Source: a plasmid. From it: 64,000 nucleotides of DNA. Within the stretch, counting starts at the first letter, position 1, and each line of letters starts with the position of its first letter. The notes under the pieces are model-generated. The model saw only the letters and a list, made by a program, of their open reading frames with translations, was not told the DNA's origin and made no database searches. This document shows positions 19,177-52,992 of the stretch, in pieces. Position numbers and translations under genes: made by a program. The stretch lies in the sequence record NZ_AP019754.1, one strand, 5' to 3'.

Positions 19177-19190
19177 TTGATCTGGATCAA
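19177..19190. promoter_or_regulatory. perfect FNR/CRP-family half-site pair TTGAT-N4-ATCAA in the 575-bp AT-rich divergent control region
   Basis: ttgatctggatcaa read directly from the sequence. Lies about 190 bp upstream of the DASS transporter start. Anaerobic dicarboxylate genes are classically FNR-dependent. Confidence 0.4.
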
Positions 19191-19375: not shown

Positions 19376-20884
19376 ATGAAAACACTCTCAAACGTCAAAG
19401 AGCCTCCAAAAGCAGCCCCTGCAACTGCGGGCAAAAATAAAGCACTTATGCTCCTTTTGCCGGTTTTGGTCGCCGTCCTGTTGTTACTCGTCCCCGTGCC
19501 AGCGGGTCTTGAACCTTATGCATGGCACTTCTTTGCCATCTTCGTCGGCGTCATCGTCGGGCTGATTTTTGAACCCTTGCCCGGCGCAGTGATTGGTCTG
19601 ACCGGCGTCGTCGTCATCGCCTTGTTCAGCCAGTTCCTGCTCTTTAGCCCGGCAGAACTGGCCAACCCCAAATTTAAAGTGGCGAGTGAGTCATTTAAAT
19701 GGGCGGTCAGCGGCTTCGGTAACTCAACCGTCTGGCTGATTTTTGGCGCATTCATGTTCGCTGCGGGCTATGACAAGACCCAGTTCGGCCGCCGTCTGGC
19801 ATTGATTCTGGTGAAATACCTGGGCCGCCGGAGTTTAACCCTCGGCTATGCCATCACCTTCGCGGATTTGCTGCTGGCCCCTTTCACCCCGTCGAACACG
19901 GCCCGCAGTGGCGGTACCATTTATCCCATCATTGCCAATCTGCCGCCGCTTTATGGTTCAAAACCCAATGACCCCAGCGCGCGTAAAATTGGATCTTATC
20001 TGATGTGGGTTGCTATCACCGCCGCCTGTATCACCAGCTCCATGTTCCTGTCCGCCCTGGCCCCCAACCTGCTCGCCCTTGCGCTGGTCAAAAGCGTCAT
20101 TGGTTTTGATATCTCCTGGGGAATGTGGTTCCTTGCCTTTTTGCCACTGGGCCTGCTGTTGATTCTGACCATGCCGCTGCTGGCGTACTGGTTCTATCCG
20201 CCTGAAGTGAAGGTGAATGATGAAGTGCCTCGCTGGGCGATTGCTGAGCTGGAAAAACTGGGTAAGTTGACCCGTAATGAAATCCTGTTACTGGTGTTTG
20301 TTGTCTGTGCGCTACTGATGTGGATTTTTGCCACTGCCTGGATCGAACCGGCCATGGCCGCTCTGCTGGTGATTATCCTGATGCTGTGGACCGGGGTACT
20401 TAACTGGAACGACATCACTAGCAATAAAGCCGCCTGGAACACCTTTGCCTGGTTTGCCACACTGGTTGCGCTGGCCGATGGTTTAGCCCGCGTAGGCTTT
20501 ATCGCCTGGCTGGGCAAAGAAGGGGGAATGTTACTGCAGGGATACGATCCTCAAGTGTCGGCTGTGGTGCTGTTGATTGCCTTCTTCCTGCTGCACTACC
20601 TGTTTGCCAGTACCACCGCGCATACGACCGCCTTGCTGCCTGCGATGTTAACCATTGCCGCTTCCATTCCAGGTATTAACATGCCCGTGTTTTGCCTGAT
20701 GCTGTGTACTTCACTGGGTGTGATGGGGATTATCACCCCTTACGGTACCGGCCCAAGCCCTATTTATTACGGCAGCGGCTATTTACCTACGAAAGATTAC
20801 TGGCGTCTGGGCACCATCTTTGGTGCTATCTTCCTGATTGCTATGATGCTCATCGCCTACCCCTGGATGGTGTGGATGTTCTGA
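19376..20884 (+). CDS. DASS-family anion:anion antiporter (TtdT/CitT-like tartrate/C4-dicarboxylate:succinate exchanger)
   Basis: 502 aa polytopic. Colinear with E. coli TtdT over most of its length (VPAGLE, FAVFTGVIVGLI.EP.PGAV, WAVSGFGNS, GRRLALILVK, FTPSNTARSGG.IYPII.NLPPLY, PYGTGPSPIYYGSGYLP..DYWRLG). Confidence 0.8.
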   Translation: MKTLSNVKEPPKAAPATAGKNKALMLLLPVLVAVLLLLVPVPAGLEPYAWHFFAIFVGVIVGLIFEPLPGAVIGLTGVVVIALFSQFLLFSPAELANPKFKVASESFKWAVSGFGNSTVWLIFGAFMFAAGYDKTQFGRRLALILVKYLGRRSLTLGYAITFADLLLAPFTPSNTARSGGTIYPIIANLPPLYGSKPNDPSARKIGSYLMWVAITAACITSSMFLSALAPNLLALALVKSVIGFDISWGMWFLAFLPLGLLLILTMPLLAYWFYPPEVKVNDEVPRWAIAELEKLGKLTRNEILLLVFVVCALLMWIFATAWIEPAMAALLVIILMLWTGVLNWNDITSNKAAWNTFAWFATLVALADGLARVGFIAWLGKEGGMLLQGYDPQVSAVVLLIAFFLLHYLFASTTAHTTALLPAMLTIAASIPGINMPVFCLMLCTSLGVMGIITPYGTGPSPIYYGSGYLPTKDYWRLGTIFGAIFLIAMMLIAYPWMVWMF

Positions 20885-29239: not shown

Positions 29240-30715
29240 ATGGATACAAACCGTTCATCGTCACCCAGGCCTAAAAAACATTTCTGGAATAAAAAGCAAA
29301 AAAAACTCACGGTTGATGACATAACCGTTATCGATAATGACATGTTAAAACGCGCTGTCGGTGCCGCCGCATTAGGTAATGCCATGGAGTGGTTTGACTT
29401 TGGCGTCTACAGCTACCTGGCTGTTATCATTGGTAAGGTCTTTTTCCCCGATGCCAATACGGCAATTCAGTTGATCGCGACCTTTGGTACCTTTGCAGCG
29501 GCGTTTTTAGTCCGCCCACTGGGCGGTCTGGTATTCGGTCCGCTGGGTGACCGAATCGGACGTCAGAAAGTGCTGGCCATCACCATGATCATGATGTCGA
29601 TAGGCACATTTTGCATCGGCATCATTCCATCCTATGCCTCAATCGGCATCATGGCACCCATCCTGCTGCTGGTGGCCCGACTCGTTCAGGGATTCTCTAC
29701 CGGTGGCGAATATGGCGGTGCAGCAACCTTCATCGCAGAGTATTCGACAGATAAACGTCGTGGTTTTATGGGAAGCTTCCTGGAGTTCGGTACATTAGGC
29801 GGCTACCTGCTGGGTGCCTGTCTGGTGACCGTAATGACGAGCTTTATCTCATCAGAAGCCATGATGTCCTGGGGCTGGCGCGTGCCCTTCTTTATTGCCG
29901 CGCCCCTTGGCTTGTTCGGCCTGTATGTGCGTTTGAAACTCGAGGAAACACCTGCTTTTAAACAACATATGCAGAAGCAGGAGGAGCTGGAGCAGAGTAA
30001 ACCGCGCCTGACGCTCTTCAAGATGTTAAGTAAGCACCGCGTGCCCATGATGAAGTGTATCGGGCTGGTCTTATTGTTTAACGTTTCCAACTACATGCTG
30101 ACCTCGTATATGCCCAGCTATCTTACCGGCGTACTGGGTTTACCTGAGCTCAGCGGGCTGCTGCTGGTAATGATCGTGATGTTTGTCATGATGCCGTTAA
30201 CGCTGATGTGGGGCCGCTGGACCGATCGAATTGGTCGTCGCCCGGTGATTGGCTTCGGTGCAGTGGGCCTGATCCTGCTCGCTATCCCCAGCTTTATGTT
30301 GATCGGTTCACATAATATGTGGGCAGTCTTTGCCGGCCTGCTCATACTGGGTATTCTGCACACCTGCTTCAGTGGCACCATGCCCTCAACGCTACCCGCG
30401 CTTTTTGCCACTGATATTCGTTACAGTGCACTGGCGATCGGCTTCAATCTTTCGGTTTCACTGTTTGGCGGCACCACGCCTTTACTTACCGCATGGCTGG
30501 TTGATACCACGCAAAATACCATGATGCCGGCGTACTACATGATGGTTGCAGGGGTGGTGGGATTACTGACGATTCTGACGGTACGTGAAACGGCCCGTAA
30601 GCCCTTAACCGGCTCTTCTCCTGCTGTCGCAAGCGAAGCCGAAGCCCAAAGCCTGATTAATAAAATGGACAGAAAGGCTGAATCCGATCGACCCGCGCCA
30701 GCTGACGCGAAATAA
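29240..30715 (+). CDS. proP: osmoprotectant (proline/glycine betaine):H+ symporter, MFS
   Basis: 491 aa; colinear with E. coli ProP (LGNAMEWFDFGVY, RPLGG..FG.LGD..GRQK.LAIT, GEY.GA..F.AEYS.D..RGFMGS, MPSYL). Shorter C-terminal tail than E. coli. Confidence 0.85.
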   Translation: MDTNRSSSPRPKKHFWNKKQKKLTVDDITVIDNDMLKRAVGAAALGNAMEWFDFGVYSYLAVIIGKVFFPDANTAIQLIATFGTFAAAFLVRPLGGLVFGPLGDRIGRQKVLAITMIMMSIGTFCIGIIPSYASIGIMAPILLLVARLVQGFSTGGEYGGAATFIAEYSTDKRRGFMGSFLEFGTLGGYLLGACLVTVMTSFISSEAMMSWGWRVPFFIAAPLGLFGLYVRLKLEETPAFKQHMQKQEELEQSKPRLTLFKMLSKHRVPMMKCIGLVLLFNVSNYMLTSYMPSYLTGVLGLPELSGLLLVMIVMFVMMPLTLMWGRWTDRIGRRPVIGFGAVGLILLAIPSFMLIGSHNMWAVFAGLLILGILHTCFSGTMPSTLPALFATDIRYSALAIGFNLSVSLFGGTTPLLTAWLVDTTQNTMMPAYYMMVAGVVGLLTILTVRETARKPLTGSSPAVASEAEAQSLINKMDRKAESDRPAPADAK

Positions 30716-30732
30716 TCCGCCGTTTTCATCCA

Positions 30733-30760
30733 AAACACCCTGTCCGCAGGGTGTTTTTTT
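30733..30760. terminator. rho-independent terminator after proP
   Basis: aaACACCCTGtccgCAGGGTGTttttttt. Confidence 0.7.
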
Positions 30761-30775
30761 ATGTGTACATTCAGT

Positions 30776-31312
30776 CTAGTCATTACCAAACCGGGCCACC
30801 GAGCTGGCCGCACCCAGGGCATGTCCTTTGAGTTTCTTCATCAGCTCGTCATGAGTCAAACCCGGTTCAAGCGCAGAGGGTGCAAGATCCGTGGCAATCA
30901 GCACGAAGTTATAGTGGTGAATGCCTGAACCGACAGGCGGACAGGGGCCGTAGTAATGGGCGGTGCCCGGTGAGTTTTTCCCACCCGTGTAACCTTTCCC
31001 CGTTGTCAGTTCACCCTGAGCAAAAGCACTGCGTTCAGAAGCAATGTTGTAAGCCACCATATGACTCACGCCGAGACCTTTAGCCCCCACGGGATCGGTC
31101 ATCAGTAAGGCAAAGCTTTTGGTACCGGCCGGACTCTCTGACCAGTTAAGTTCGGGTGATACGTTTTCGCCGGTGCAGGCCGCATTACTTTTATTCGCAC
31201 CGGCAAATTTTTTATCTAACAAGCCATTATCGCTGAAGTCTTTCGACTGCAGGGTTAAAGCCAATGCAGCAGGACATAAAAAGATTAACAACAGATAAGG
31301 AAATTTTTTCAC
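30776..31312 (-). CDS. secreted YbhB/YbcL-family phosphatidylethanolamine-binding (Raf-kinase-inhibitor-like) protein
   Basis: Signal peptide MKKFPYLLLIFLCPAALA. PEBP motifs (SPEL.WS, HHY.F....D, GPCPP). Confidence 0.8.
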   Translation of the reverse strand: MKKFPYLLLIFLCPAALALTLQSKDFSDNGLLDKKFAGANKSNAACTGENVSPELNWSESPAGTKSFALLMTDPVGAKGLGVSHMVAYNIASERSAFAQGELTTGKGYTGGKNSPGTAHYYGPCPPVGSGIHHYNFVLIATDLAPSALEPGLTHDELMKKLKGHALGAASSVARFGND

Positions 31313-31680
31313 CTGATACTCCTGTGTTATCGAGAGGTTATCCTGGGACGAGAGCGAAATTCATCCAATCCACAATGAAACAGTATATGTCTCAAAACCC
31401 GACAGAGAAGTGCGACAGGAGCCCACAGAAAAGAGGAGAAGAGAAATAAAAACCGCAGTTCGCCAGAGGCGACAGGCCTTCAGGATCGGCCTGTGAAGGG
31501 GAATAAGGCTTATTTTACTGTCATCTTTCAGGGTGAAATCGCCAGTATTTAGCGCCCGATTGCCGGTAGCAAACCGGTCTGACGCCTTTTTTTTATTTAC
31601 ACAAAAGGCCTGATACTTGATCTGAATCACAAAAATCCGCATGATCTGCATCAAACATTTAAACAGGTATTGAGGCAAAA

Positions 31681-31854
31681 ATGACACTTTATCAACACAT
31701 GCTGGTCTTCTATGGCATTGTTGCCTCGGTAGCGGCACTCATCACCTTCTTTATCGCCAAAGACAAGCTCAGCATCAAACTGTTGAGTGCTTTTCTGGTT
31801 GGTGCAACCTGGCCTATGAGTTTTCCGGTAGCATTAATGTTCGCGCTATTTTGA
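31681..31854 (+). CDS. GhoT/OrtT-family (DUF2566) small membrane toxin, 57 aa, orphan (no ghoS-like gene nearby)
   Basis: Not in the ORF track (under 60 aa). GAGG RBS 8 nt upstream. Translation MTLYQHMLVFYGIVASVAALITFFIAKDKLSIKLLSAFLVGATWPMSFPVALMFALF aligns end to end with E. coli GhoT (MALFSKILIFYVIGVNISFVIIWFISHEKTHIRLLSAFLVGITWPMSLPVALLFSLF; the E. coli sequence is from memory), including the LLSAFLVG.TWPMS.PVAL.F.LF C-terminal signature. Two TM helices. Confidence 0.7.
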   Translation: MTLYQHMLVFYGIVASVAALITFFIAKDKLSIKLLSAFLVGATWPMSFPVALMFALF

Positions 31855-32181
31855 AAATTTCTCTCCTGTAGGTCAGATACATCGCTACCTGCTGGGCGGT
31901 CTTCACACTTCAATAAGACACCTTCACCAGACAATTTTGCATAACCTTCCCTTGGCGCAACCGCTGCCCTGTACTGTTCTGCAAAACCCGCTTTTTCCTG
32001 CAAGCGATGGCTGCAATCATCGCCACAGCGTGCCGTTCCGATAGACGCCTTTTGTCATGCACCGCACTCACTGACTTGCTGACGTCGCAAGATACCTGTT
32101 TTGGCAGCGCGCGATCGCCCGCTACCGAAAGGGAAAATCGTAGGGTAACAGACTGAACCTCGTGAAGTTTTTACCCCACCT

Positions 32182-32388
32182 TTATTGTGAACCCTGGTGT
32201 GTTATTTCAGCATAACGGGCCGTCAGTTGCTTCAGGTGCATTTCCAGTTGAGACCGGGCAGCGGCAGGTAAAGGTTCGCCCGCAGGATGTTGTGACAATG
32301 CCCGCAGTTGCTCTTCAACCGGTATGGATTGGTTAAAGGACTGCATAGTGGAAAAAACCACTGATTTCAGCTCGCTGACCCGTTTCAA
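32182..32388 (-). CDS. hypothetical small soluble protein (68 aa) downstream of clcA
   Basis: ORF only; no motif recognised. Sits 68 bp downstream of the clcA stop on the same strand. Confidence 0.3.
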   Translation of the reverse strand: MKRVSELKSVVFSTMQSFNQSIPVEEQLRALSQHPAGEPLPAAARSQLEMHLKQLTARYAEITHQGSQ

Positions 32389-32456
32389 GAATGATTGCCG
32401 TCCGACCTCAGGCCAGATTCCCGGCGTTAATATCTGCGCAATTTCGCCCTGCTCAC

Positions 32457-33863
32457 TCAGGCCCGATCGTGCGTTGCATTGGCCTCCGCCTCACTTTGTT
32501 GCTGCTTTGCCAGAGTCCGGGCGAGAAGCGTTGAATACAACGGCGTTCCGCCGAAATATTGCGCAGACAGGGTAGCCCCAAGACAGGTAATAATCATTGG
32601 CAGAATAAGCTGATAATTATTCGTCATCTCCAGCACCAGAATAATGCCGGTCAAGGGTGCGCGTACCGAGGCCGCAAATAACGCCCCCATGCCCGCAACG
32701 GCAAAGGTTGCCGCTTCAAGATGATACGCCGGAAACATTGCAACACAGAGTTGACCGACGCTGATGCCGAGTAATGTGCCGAGCGTCAGCATCGGCGCGA
32801 AAATACCGCCTGGCGCCCCGGATGCGAAACACAGCAAGGTGGTCAGCGCGCGAAGAAAAAACAGGGAGAGTAAAGCGGCGGAGGTATATGTACCGGCTGA
32901 AAAGTCGGGAATTAACGTAATACCGCCAGTAACGGCCTGAGGCAGTACCAGCCCCAGCAGACCGCATAATCCGCCCAACACTGCACCGCCCAGCACCCAA
33001 CGCGAGGTTTGGCCCTTGTGAAGAGTCTGAAACAGATCCTGCAGCGTGAATATCAGACGATTAAAGGCCACACCGCAGCCACCAAATAGAATCCCTAACA
33101 GCAAATATAACCACAGGGTTTGTATCGGCGCATCTTTCAGTTGCCCGATGTTAATGATGGGTTCGTTACCGTTCAGCGCACGAAAAACAATGCTTGAGGT
33201 AATGACCCCAACAAACACGGCTTTGATAGAAATAAGGCTAAAGCGAAACTGCAGGCGCATTTCTTCAATGATGAACAGAATGCCTGCCAGCGGGGCATTA
33301 AAGGCGGCGGCCAGGCCAGAAGCAGCACCGGTAGCCAGAATAGTATGACGGGATTCAGAAGACCGCATGCGGAAGATATCCAGACACATGCGTCCAATGT
33401 TGCCGCCAATTTGAACTGTCGGCCCTTCTCGCCCAAGCACCATGCCCGAGCCCAGCGCGCCCAGCCCCCCAACGAACTTCACCGGTAAAACTCGCCACCA
33501 GCGTACGGGCCTTAACTCCTCCAGCGCACCTTCTATTTCAGGAATGCCCGATCCACCCGCTTCAGGCGCAAATCGCCTGACAAGAAAATAGCCTGAAGCT
33601 GCCAGCCCTGCGGAAAAAATAAAGGCAAACAAGCCCATTAACAAGGCATTGTTTTCAAACTGGCTCAGCCAGTGGAGGCGGGAATGTATGACCCAGCTTA
33701 CCGCTCTGTCGAATGCCACCGCCGTCAGGCCCGTTAATACACCCACCAGCGCGGCGAGCAGTAATAAGGCAACCGGCGTTTTATCTCGCCGAATAAGATA
33801 TTGTAACAACCGTAGCCGACGGGGGCGAAAAAGACCGGGTCGGTTTGAGACAAAAGCGCGCAT
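32457..33863 (-). CDS. clcA: H+/Cl- exchange transporter ClcA
   Basis: The ORF track starts at TTG 33902; ATG 33863 gives [10 protein letters not shown].... ClC selectivity motifs GSGIP, GREGP, GIFAP and the gating Glu context are all present. Colinear with E. coli ClcA. Confidence 0.9.
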
Positions 33864-34133
33864 GCCTGACCTCAAAATTAGCGTGCTGAACAGCACCAAC
33901 AATGCAAATTAAATCCAGAGGTTATCGCATCCCCGCCATAATTCCTCGCTTTTATTTATCTCCGAATTTTACTAAATCAGCAACCTGCTGCTGCATAAGG
34001 GATGATGTGGGGTAATCATCATGCCTGATAAAATTTCAGGCCTCGTCTGGCAATTTTATCTGCAAGCCATTGATTTGCAGCCTGAGGACGCTCATCATCC
34101 TGCGCCATCAACGATCTTTCTGGAGACGCGTGT

Positions 34134-35054
34134 GTGACCACTCTCAGTAATTCACTGCTTGAAGCCGTTCTTGAGCAGGTCCGTCCGTTAGTTCATCAGG
34201 GCAAAGTCGCTAATTACATTCCGGCGCTGGCTGACGTCGCGGCCGACCATCTGGGTATAGCGGTCTGTTTACGTGATGGCACAGTTTTTCAGGCAGGCGA
34301 TGCTGAAACTCGTTTTTCGATCCAGTCCATTTCGAAAGTGCTCTCACTCACCGTCGCGCTGACGCGTTATGAGGATGCGGAGATATGGCGGCGAGTGGGT
34401 AAAGAACCCTCCGGTCAGCCTTTTAATTCGCTGGTTCAGCTTGAACTGGAGCAGGGAAAACCCCGTAATCCCTTTATTAACGCCGGGGCGCTGGTGATCT
34501 GCGATTTGCTTGAAACCCGGCTGACAGCACCGCGTCAGCGTATGCTGGAAATAATCCGTCAGCTCAGTCAGCAATCGGATATTCAGTACGATCGTCACGT
34601 CGCCCGTTCTGAATACGAACACTCTGCCCGCAACGCGGCTATCGCCTGGCTGATGAAGTCATTTGGTAATTTTGACAACGACGTCACCAGCGTTATGCAG
34701 ACTTATTTTCACTACTGCTCATTGTCCATGAACTGTATTGAACTGGCTCGCAGTTTTATTTATCTGGCTAATCAGGGAAAAACCCTGGATGGCGCGTCCC
34801 TGATTTCGTCCCGCCAGGCGCGGCAGATCAATGCGCTAATGATTACCAGCGGTATGTACGACGGGGCTGGCGAATTTGCCTGGCGGGTGGGCATGCCCGC
34901 CAAATCCGGGGTTGGCGGCGGTATCATTGCCGTCATTCCTGGTGAAATGAGCATCGCGGTCTGGTCACCCGGATTGGATAGCGCGGGCAATTCGTTAGCC
35001 GGCACCGCCGCGCTGGAGTGCCTGACTGACAAACTCGGTCGTTCGATATTCTGA
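34134..35054 (+). CDS. glsB: glutaminase (YneH/GlsB-type)
   Basis: GTG start with GGAG 8 nt upstream. Colinear with E. coli glutaminase 2 ([64 protein letters not shown]). Confidence 0.85.
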
Positions 35055-52033: not shown

Positions 52034-52792
52034 TTAGCGAAATTGCGCCAGGCCGAAAACGGGCGTAGAGGCGGCAGCCATGTCGCGACGCTCCATCATG
52101 CCAGCCTGACGTGCCTGATATCCCGCTTCAATGGCGCGCGCAAATGCGCCAGCCATACCAACCGGATCGCTGGATTTCGCCACGGCGGTATTCAACAGCA
52201 CAGCATCAAACCCCAATTCCATCGCCTGAGCCGCCTGGCTCGGCGCACCGATCCCGGCATCAATAATGAGTGGAACGTCCTTAAACCAGGCACGCATCGT
52301 GCGTAAGCCCTCGATATTGCGTAATCCCTGGCCTGAGCCGATGGGCGCCCCCCACGGCATCAGCACTTCACAGCCCGCGTCCAGCAGTTTCTCGCCCACA
52401 ATCAGATCTTCTGTGGTGTAAGGGAAAACGTGGAAACCCTCTGCACACAAAATACGTGCTGCTTCGACGAGGGCAAAGGGATCGGGCTGTAAGGTATCGG
52501 CATGACCGATCACCTCAAGCTTGATCCAGGACGTGGCAAACAATTCCCGCGCCATATGCGCAGTCGTCACGGCTTCTTTCACCGTGTGGCAGCCTGCGGT
52601 ATTGGGTAAAACGCGTTTATTTAAGGTTTTCAGGAGATCGCGAAAGGCTCCACCCTGGCTTCCTTCACGACGCAGACTCACCGTAATAATCTCGGCGCCG
52701 GATGCGCCAACGGCCTGTTGCAGAATATCCGGCGAGGGATAACCTGCAGTGCCCAGTAAAAAACGTGACTGTCCGCTAAAGTCATAAAACAT
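52034..52792 (-). CDS. thiG: thiazole synthase
   Basis: 252 aa. Conserved [46 protein letters not shown]. Confidence 0.9.
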
Positions 52793-52794
52793 CG

Positions 52795-52992
52795 TTAGCC
52801 TCCCTGCATCGGCGATAACACTTCAAGACGACAACCCGCCACAAGCGGCTCTGAGGAATAGCGCTCCCGGGGAACAAATTCGCCGTTCACGGCACTGGCG
52901 ACACAGCCAGCATCGATATGTTGTTCCACGAGTAATTCAGCCAGCGTGTGGGCTTCGGTTTCAATAGCAAGGCCGTTCAGTTCTATTTTCAT
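52795..52992 (-). CDS. thiS: sulfur-carrier protein ThiS
   Basis: 65 aa ending in GG. Confidence 0.8.

Follow-up and report, generated by a model that had tools for sequence, protein, structure and literature searches.

An orphan OrtT-like gene on a Pantoea ananatis plasmid and its conserved FNR-type promoter block

A small gene on a plasmid of Pantoea ananatis is very probably the ortholog of ortT (ydcX). On this account it would encode a stand-alone membrane-damaging protein that is controlled at the level of transcription and has no antitoxin. The gene lies within a 64,000-nt stretch of sequence record NZ_AP019754.1 (the window), a region ~99% identical to the large plasmid of P. ananatis strains (PLSDB replicon cluster 1232); this plasmid type is known as the LPP-1 megaplasmid. 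The argument has two sources. Analysis of the window supplies the constraint on the gene, its family and clade, the absence of GhoS, and the conservation and position of an operator. Published work on E. coli and on Pantoea sp. MT58 supplies the mechanism of toxicity, the lack of an antitoxin, the binding of FNR, CRP, and RpoS, the induction, and the fitness effect. We infer the direction of FNR action, the transcription start, and the transfer of the whole account to P. ananatis.

RefSeq and the literature on E. coli and another Pantoea strain already cover the gene, the family to which it belongs, and its lack of a partner. The initial annotation had called the gene unannotated. It was missed in the ORF track only because of a 60-aa ORF cut-off, and the exact protein is RefSeq WP_014333244.1, labelled 'GhoT/OrtT family toxin', whose gene occupies this place on P. 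ananatis plasmids, flanked by a YbhB/YbcL (PEBP) gene and clcA; 522 public contigs encode the identical protein. In addition, an RB-TnSeq study (ISME J 2024, PMC11467524) named the ortholog on the megaplasmid of Pantoea sp. MT58 'ydcX ... orphan toxin OrtT', reported a fitness of -1.7 for the ydcX mutant in acidic contaminated groundwater, and placed ydcX orthologs in the ananatis/stewartii phylogroup. The MT58 gene, on pMT58-1, comes from the same genus and the same kind of megaplasmid, but MT58 itself belongs to the agglomerans/vagans phylogroup, unlike the ananatis/stewartii group of the window. On the agglomerans/vagans-group plasmids examined, which do not include the MT58 locus, the protein is ~88% identical to that of the window, fucO lies upstream, and a small lipoprotein-like ORF comes after the toxin gene.

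As a discovery, the gene carries little weight; its description is useful as the correct annotation of a gene of fewer than 60 aa hidden by an ORF-length cut-off. The modest addition made here is an FNR-type operator/promoter conserved across genera, which gives a testable answer to how a toxin that lacks an antitoxin is kept safe. No statement of this cross-genus conservation of an FNR-type ortT operator was found in the cited OrtT/FNR literature.

The coding region comprises two features.

31681 to 31854, plus strand: ortT-like coding sequence for a putative two-helix inner-membrane toxin of the GhoT/OrtT family (from the ORF, Pfam, and homology)
31672 to 31675, plus strand: Shine-Dalgarno sequence GAGG, read from the sequence, 5 nt before the ATG

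According to the ORF listing, the frame runs from an ATG start through 57 codons to a TGA stop, and there is no in-frame start farther upstream. Both the 57-aa frame and the GAGG ribosome binding site were correctly placed in the initial annotation, and other Pantoea orthologs have GGAG or GAGG in the corresponding place. The 57-aa product, MTLYQHMLVFYGIVASVAALITFFIAKDKLSIKLLSAFLVGATWPMSFPVALMFALF, matches Pfam PF10753 (Toxin_GhoT_OrtT, DUF2566) from residue 4 to residue 57, spanning profile positions 1-55 of 55 with a score of 80.7 bits (E 9.4e-23), above the curated gathering cut-off of 22.1. No NCBIfam model matches the ORF, and no relative of the protein is present in the PDB. An AlphaFold2 model built on 13 homologues contains two helices, residues 3-27 and 29-56, with a mean pLDDT of 73.7, and Kyte-Doolittle hydropathy is positive throughout the protein, with a dip at the KDK loop. 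The predicted structure is thus in keeping with the two transmembrane helices proposed earlier.

This ORF is a genuine gene under constraint. The ORF differs from that of P. allii by 24 synonymous and 3 non-synonymous changes; compared with P. stewartii, 33 nucleotide differences yield only 3 amino-acid differences. Wherever dS is unsaturated, dN/dS is 0.02-0.08, indicating strong purifying selection. All 80 of the species-representative orthologs examined keep an intact frame of exactly 57 codons, and the toxin family is present in at least 222 species genomes, with most orthologs on chromosome-sized or unassigned contigs, not on records titled plasmid. A frame of only 57 aa that adjoins a deletion scar might be suspected of being a chance reading frame or a decaying remnant. 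However, the selection and conservation data refute this idea, to which virtually no probability can be given: the Pfam match covers the full length, the differences from P. allii are overwhelmingly synonymous, every ortholog is intact, and the identical protein recurs on hundreds of contigs.

Within the family, sequence comparison places the window protein with the orphan OrtT-type proteins and away from the GhoS-linked toxins. GhoT is co-transcribed with ghoS, and GhoS is an RNase that cleaves ghoT mRNA. The window protein resembles E. coli GhoT in Pfam family, length, predicted two-helix topology, and the conserved C-terminal half. As the initial annotation had noted, the two align over their full length, here without gaps and with 31 of 57 residues identical (54%), and the C-terminal LLSAFLVGxTWPMSxPVAL motif is kept in the alignments to both GhoT and OrtT. 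The match to E. coli K-12 OrtT (YdcX; PMC4344625) is closer: both proteins are 57 aa, they align without gaps at 40 of 57 identical residues (70%), and they share the N-terminal M[TS]LYQHML, the C-terminal LSAFLVGATWPMSFPVAL, and F38. Orphan OrtT-type proteins from many genera are identical to the window protein at 37-50 of 57 positions, and those from Pantoea agglomerans, Siccibacter, Enterobacter, Dryocola, Kosakonia, Atlantibacter, and Mangrovibacter at 38-50. The second of the two GhoS-linked toxins compared, a Pluralibacter-type protein whose gene lies directly upstream of a ghoS gene, is identical at 24 of 57. The window gene and E. coli ortT both lack a GhoS partner, and in both the same promoter/operator block lies equally far from the ATG. 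The earlier suggestion of an OrtT-like gene, not a GhoST pair, is correct, and the grouping with orphan OrtT-type proteins and the shared ortT promoter block strengthen it. The two loci do differ: E. coli ortT is chromosomal with yncL and ydcY beside it, while the window gene is on an LPP-1-type megaplasmid, flanked by a PEBP-family gene and a type VI secretion system (T6SS) scar/clcA.

A paired ghoS gene, which defines a GhoST system, is absent from the window locus. A tblastn search of the 64-kb window with GhoS gave no match (best E 4.7), and a profile made from 12 diverse GhoS-family proteins, run against every stop-to-stop segment of the six-frame translation of the window, gave a best E of 2.2. 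Neither tblastn nor the HMM finds GhoS in the 368-nt upstream spacer, in agreement with the initial annotation, and there is no adjacent GhoS homologue anywhere in the window. Separately, a tblastn match of the distant GhoS-family protein P0185 at 52723-52923 (E 0.004) was ruled out: it is antisense to a minus-strand operon, it corresponds to no plus-strand ORF, and the GhoS HMM is silent there. Among plasmids in PLSDB, GhoS occurs only in E. coli records and on no Pantoea plasmid, and none of the 80 orthologs has GhoS within 2.5 kb. Searched exhaustively with HMMER, 1.84 billion representatives of a 15-billion-protein collection yielded only 37 GhoS relatives; in this collection, the named members come only from Escherichia, Salmonella, Pluralibacter, and Serratia. 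For the source strain, the probable genome-wide absence of GhoS was judged from this database-wide taxonomy. By these searches, the window gene is an orphan and OrtT-like. With the toxin present in at least 222 species genomes and GhoS confined to a few genera, members of this toxin family are as a rule orphans and only rarely paired with GhoS.

The genes on the upstream side of the toxin gene are as follows.

30776 to 31312, divergent to the toxin ORF: PEBP-family gene, the upstream neighbour
31264 to 31449, plus strand: small ORF of 61 aa that overlaps the start of the PEBP-family gene

The small ORF has no Pfam or NCBIfam match and does overlap its neighbour, so its description as unrelated to GhoS still stands. 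The neighbours of the toxin gene vary among lineages (PEBP in the ananatis/stewartii group, fucO in that of agglomerans, and yncL/ydcY in E. coli), and thus there is no conserved partner gene; neither YdcY nor YncL has an equivalent in the window. In many other Pantoea, the toxin gene is closely followed on the same strand by a small lipoprotein-like ORF that belongs to no Pfam family. The only window match to this ORF, at 29851-29955 (E 4e-4), lies off-frame inside proP and was judged spurious.

Could the gene nevertheless be the toxin of a toxin-antitoxin pair whose partner, a type I-like RNA or a small protein, has escaped recognition, and which stabilises the LPP-1 megaplasmid by post-segregational killing? 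The gene is plasmid-borne, and the spacers on its two sides are sizeable (368 nt upstream, 327 nt downstream); a hairpin with a T-run after it, upstream at ~31560-31595, and the lipoprotein-like ORF of other Pantoea might each be seen as a candidate. However, this explanation is quite improbable. No structured RNA, sRNA, or riboswitch was found by Rfam in 30700-32600 at E<=1, and the upstream spacer folds no better than its shuffles (z -0.27). The hairpin and T-run are common only to close relatives, and P. ananatis, P. allii, and P. stewartii all lack the lipoprotein-like ORF. What is conserved across species is a promoter block of ~38 nt and the ORF itself, with conservation ending at the stop codon. 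Within the ORF, synonymous change is nearly saturated (pS 0.6-0.9), so that a conserved antisense RNA could not be accommodated there. Most orthologs are not on plasmid-titled records, which also argues against a role in plasmid maintenance. Finally, four experimental approaches in E. coli, with YdcY, GhoS, flanking RNA, and a genomic library, turned up no antitoxin to OrtT (PMC4344625).

In the proposed mechanism, the 57-residue hydrophobic protein would form a two-helix hairpin in the inner membrane. At high levels of production, it would damage the membrane and dissipate energy, so that ATP falls and growth slows, and neither a protein nor an RNA antitoxin would restrain it. The type I toxins Hok, TisB, and Ldr are likewise small hydrophobic peptides of the inner membrane, which depolarise the membrane, lower ATP, and promote dormancy, and they are repressed by antisense or adjacent small RNAs. 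The window protein is unrelated to them in sequence, and its locus gives no indication of an antisense or adjacent small RNA. In E. coli, production of OrtT leads to membrane damage, lysis, loss of ATP, and more persisters (Islam, Benedik & Wood 2015, PMC4344625). In the same work, membrane damage was seen by TEM, and the substitution F38R abolished toxicity in both OrtT and GhoT. Phe38 is present in the window protein, but it is not a strict marker of the family, as this position is F, L, T, A, or V in the family alignment.

It is conceivable, if on balance unlikely, that the protein is not physiologically a toxin at all but a small regulated inner-membrane stress protein that, for example, modulates the proton motive force or a transporter, and that its toxicity is an artefact of over-expression such as small hydrophobic proteins commonly give. 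There is no antitoxin in the window, near the 80 orthologs, or in the E. coli tests (PMC4344625); vertical descent has preserved the gene in 222 or more species genomes, under very strong purifying selection and with a fixed promoter architecture; its loss lowers the fitness of MT58 under stress (PMC11467524); and proP, clcA, and glsB, its neighbours in Pantoea, are genes of stress and ion homeostasis. All of this would suit such a protein. However, E. coli lacking ortT showed more growth and a higher metabolism under trimethoprim/sulfamethoxazole (PMC4344625), and induction at native levels accompanies stringent stress in E. coli; together, these fit a genuine growth-reducing role. The membrane damage seen by TEM and its abolition by F38R (PMC4344625) also speak for a specific toxic activity. 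The distinction between a toxin and a membrane modulator is partly semantic, and it leaves family membership unaffected.

The promoter region has the following features.

31612 to 31649, plus strand: core promoter/operator block; no other non-coding sequence is shared across genera
31617 to 31630, no strand assigned: FNR/CRP-family palindrome TTGATCTGAATCAC, 9 of 10 positions matching TTGAT-N4-ATCAA, centre 57.5 nt before the ATG
31617 to 31622, plus strand: -35-like hexamer TTGATC (predicted), within the palindrome
31640 to 31645, plus strand: -10-like hexamer CATGAT (predicted), part of CGCATAnTGCG; predicted start near 31652

TTGAT-N4-ATCAA is the FNR box. When loci are anchored on the box, the 38-nt block is identical to that of distant genera at 21-31 of 38 positions (55-82%), whereas its flanks are at ~25%, the random level. 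By blastn to distant Pantoea, similarity extends from ~31609, ~70 nt before the ATG, to the stop codon, and when seven Pantoea loci and E. coli ortT are aligned, an invariant upstream block stands out. The box-anchored consensus, from the 74 of 80 orthologs that have the block, is ACTTGATCTGnATCA-N8-CGCATAnTGCG. A palindrome with no more than 2 mismatches is present at the fixed position in 74 of 80 species from 16 named genera, its centre always 53-61 nt from the ATG, and in 21 orthologs it is the perfect FNR consensus, TTGATnnnnATCAA. By chance, a box would be expected per locus, within a 20-position search window, at a frequency of ~0.0015 (<=1 mismatch) or ~0.014 (<=2 mismatches). The box is absent from the remaining 6 of the 80, in Atlantibacter and Ca. 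Pantoea multigeneris. The region upstream of E. coli ghoST contains no FNR box with <=1 mismatch. Unlike E. coli ortT, the P. ananatis gene has a second FNR-like box (31641-31654), which overlaps the -10 region.

The spacing from TTGATC to CATAnT is 17 nt in all of the box-bearing orthologs, and the -10-like positions have high information content in a profile of 72 sequences. A simple σ70 scan (>=9/12) called no promoter here, and a terminator scan gave terminator-like matches only inside the ORF; the promoter proposal therefore rests on comparative conservation. TTGATC-17 nt-CATGAT would then constitute a promoter of the σ70 or σS type, as judged from its sequence, with its -35 region inside the FNR/CRP-family operator.

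Work on E. coli links this block to several regulators. In alignment, the palindrome TTGATCTGAATCAC corresponds to E. coli TTGATGCACGTCAA, which Grainger et al. give as their FNR ChIP-chip motif, and the E. coli counterpart, AAAACTTGATGCACGTCAAAAAAT, is an FNR target in vivo by ChIP-chip in anaerobic cultures (PMC1802558). For the ydcX site, the same paper gives 'Identified by transcriptome analysis? No' with respect to the study compared. Because binding was unmatched by a transcriptome change, the site could be weakly functional, or it could be used by CRP or another member of the family. The yncL-ydcX spacer is a target of CRP in genomic SELEX in vitro (PMC3105977), as well as a strong SELEX peak for the RpoS holoenzyme (PMC5493296). 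In E. coli CFT073, ydcX rose 11.85-fold when NO was generated in anaerobic nitrate cultures; cyoABCD and sdh rose together with it, and the authors partly invoke inactivation of FNR (PMC5320621). Triggers of the stringent response also induce E. coli ortT, up to 89-fold with serine hydroxamate by qRT-PCR.

By its sequence, the operator suggests that expression is probably gated by FNR, and both its geometry and the NO induction favour repression. With its centre near -29, the box would cover both the -35 element and the spacer, and FNR bound there should hinder RNA polymerase. In this scheme, active FNR, in anaerobic cells without NO, would sit on the operator and keep the gene low. Loss of FNR activity through oxygen or nitric oxide, combined with stress (the stringent response and ppGpp, stationary phase, the stress σ factor), would allow expression, and the outcome would be a reversible slow-down that aids survival under stress.

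The start near 31652 is a predicted one, and if the -10 element lay ~13 nt farther downstream, the box would be near -41.5 and FNR would activate. The palindrome could then be a class II activator site, or it could belong to CRP and not to FNR, with anaerobiosis or cAMP-CRP switching the gene on. FNR did bind the E. coli site in anaerobic cultures (PMC1802558), CRP did bind the same spacer in vitro (PMC3105977), and the downstream half-site in Pantoea is TCACA, a CRP half-site. However, the conserved TTGATC-17 nt-CATAnT arrangement puts the centre of the box near -29, not -41.5, and where a class II -10 element would lie, 30-35 nt past the box centre on its downstream side, conservation among genera is poor. 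In addition, ydcX rose with cyo and sdh, which are repressed by FNR/ArcA, under anaerobic NO (PMC5320621), and the 21 orthologs with a perfect box have the FNR consensus and not the CRP core TGTGA. Activation by either protein is thus a doubtful alternative, and the class II geometry is less likely than an operator laid over the promoter.

A broader reading is at present tentative and stops somewhat short of being probable. The OrtT family would be an ancient, vertically inherited member of an Enterobacterales regulon, a membrane-depolarising brake that is wired to the oxygen and NO sensor FNR, and also to CRP and σS, by way of an operator that merges with the -35 element and keeps its position in 16 or more named genera, with P. 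ananatis adding the second box over the -10 region. If so, OrtT would be a redox- and NO-triggered brake on growth and a clean model for the control of a toxin without an antitoxin, and genes of the OrtT family would not be the degenerate leftovers of toxin-antitoxin systems.

As an internal control, the only perfect FNR box in the window is found at 19177-19190. It sits between a flavocytochrome c/fumarate-reductase-like gene and a gene for a DASS anion symporter, both typical anaerobic functions.

In Pantoea megaplasmids (window 29240-34900; loci L003 and L005-L010), the ortT-like gene, encoding an orphan membrane toxin of the GhoT/OrtT family, keeps company with genes for stress and ion homeostasis: proP, for osmoprotectant uptake; either clcA, for an H+/Cl- exchanger, or a gene for an MFS transporter; and glsB, for glutaminase B. 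This linkage is suggestive when set beside the acid-stress fitness phenotype of ydcX (ortT) in Pantoea sp. MT58 (PMC11467524).

A complete type VI secretion cluster (VasL, tssE, tssJ, tssG, tssF, tssA, an ImcF-like gene, and more) separates the ortT-like gene from clcA in P. ananatis strains such as R100 and AJ13355. In the window, a short ORF is found beside the toxin gene instead:

32182-32388, minus strand: 68-aa ORF, a VasL remnant by identity with P. ananatis R100 VasL

Over its final 65 codons, this ORF matches R100 VasL, a protein of 463 aa, with 100% identity (VasL residues 399-463), and collinearity between the window and R100 stops at 32380. The ORF is a deletion scar, and the type VI secretion cluster has been lost from the window strain.

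Two further elements are present at the promoter of the ortT-like gene:

31641-31654: second FNR-like box, ATGATCTGCATCAA, with 1 mismatch; a putative site, by sequence
~31553-31597, plus strand: hairpin with a T8 run after it (CCGGT-AGCAA-ACCGG, part of a longer imperfect stem)

The second box lies 24 bp downstream of the conserved FNR/CRP-type box, centre-to-centre, where it overlaps the CATGAT of the -10-like element. P. ananatis has this box, and P. allii and P. stewartii have it in degraded form; in other genera, its position is occupied by the palindrome CGCATnATGCG. The hairpin and T8 run precede the conserved promoter block by ~20-60 nt, and the window shares the T-run and the TTTACACAAAAGG that comes after it with P. 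stewartii and P. allii only. A terminator scan did not call this element as a terminator, and Rfam gave no match in the region. The element could act as a UP-like A/T tract, or a putative plus-strand transcript could end there.

Elsewhere in the window, another FNR-type box is present in the divergent spacer between two genes:

19177-19190: perfect FNR-type box, TTGATCTGGATCAA
16008-18800, minus strand: OYE-flavocytochrome c/fumarate-reductase-like gene (930 aa), on one side of the box
19376-20884, plus strand: DASS anion symporter gene, on the other side

The two genes probably form a plasmid-borne pair for anaerobic respiration and uptake under FNR control.

A lipoprotein-like ORF of 56-58 aa follows the toxin gene on the same strand, ~105-140 nt past it, in most Pantoea other than P. 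ananatis, as well as in Mixta and one unclassified member of the Enterobacterales. Examples are these Pantoea megaplasmid loci:

L006, 3855-4025: lipoprotein-like ORF
L008, 3906-4079: lipoprotein-like ORF
L009, 3846-4022: lipoprotein-like ORF

It is also present at 26 of the 80 ortholog loci (L011-L090). P. ananatis, P. allii, and P. stewartii are without it. The product begins with a signal peptide that carries an LSAC lipobox, and its tail, ETRQQTCQPG..SQNDCGHFPEPEFH, is conserved; it belongs to no Pfam family and shows no relationship to YdcY of E. coli.

GhoS, the antitoxin partner of GhoT in E. coli, has family members in other genera. Those of Serratia fonticola (L091/L092) and Salmonella enterica (L093) have no adjoining GhoT/OrtT-family toxin gene, and are therefore orphan antitoxins. 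At the Pluralibacter-type locus (L094), the toxin gene comes first and ghoS second, whereas E. coli has the two genes in the opposite order.
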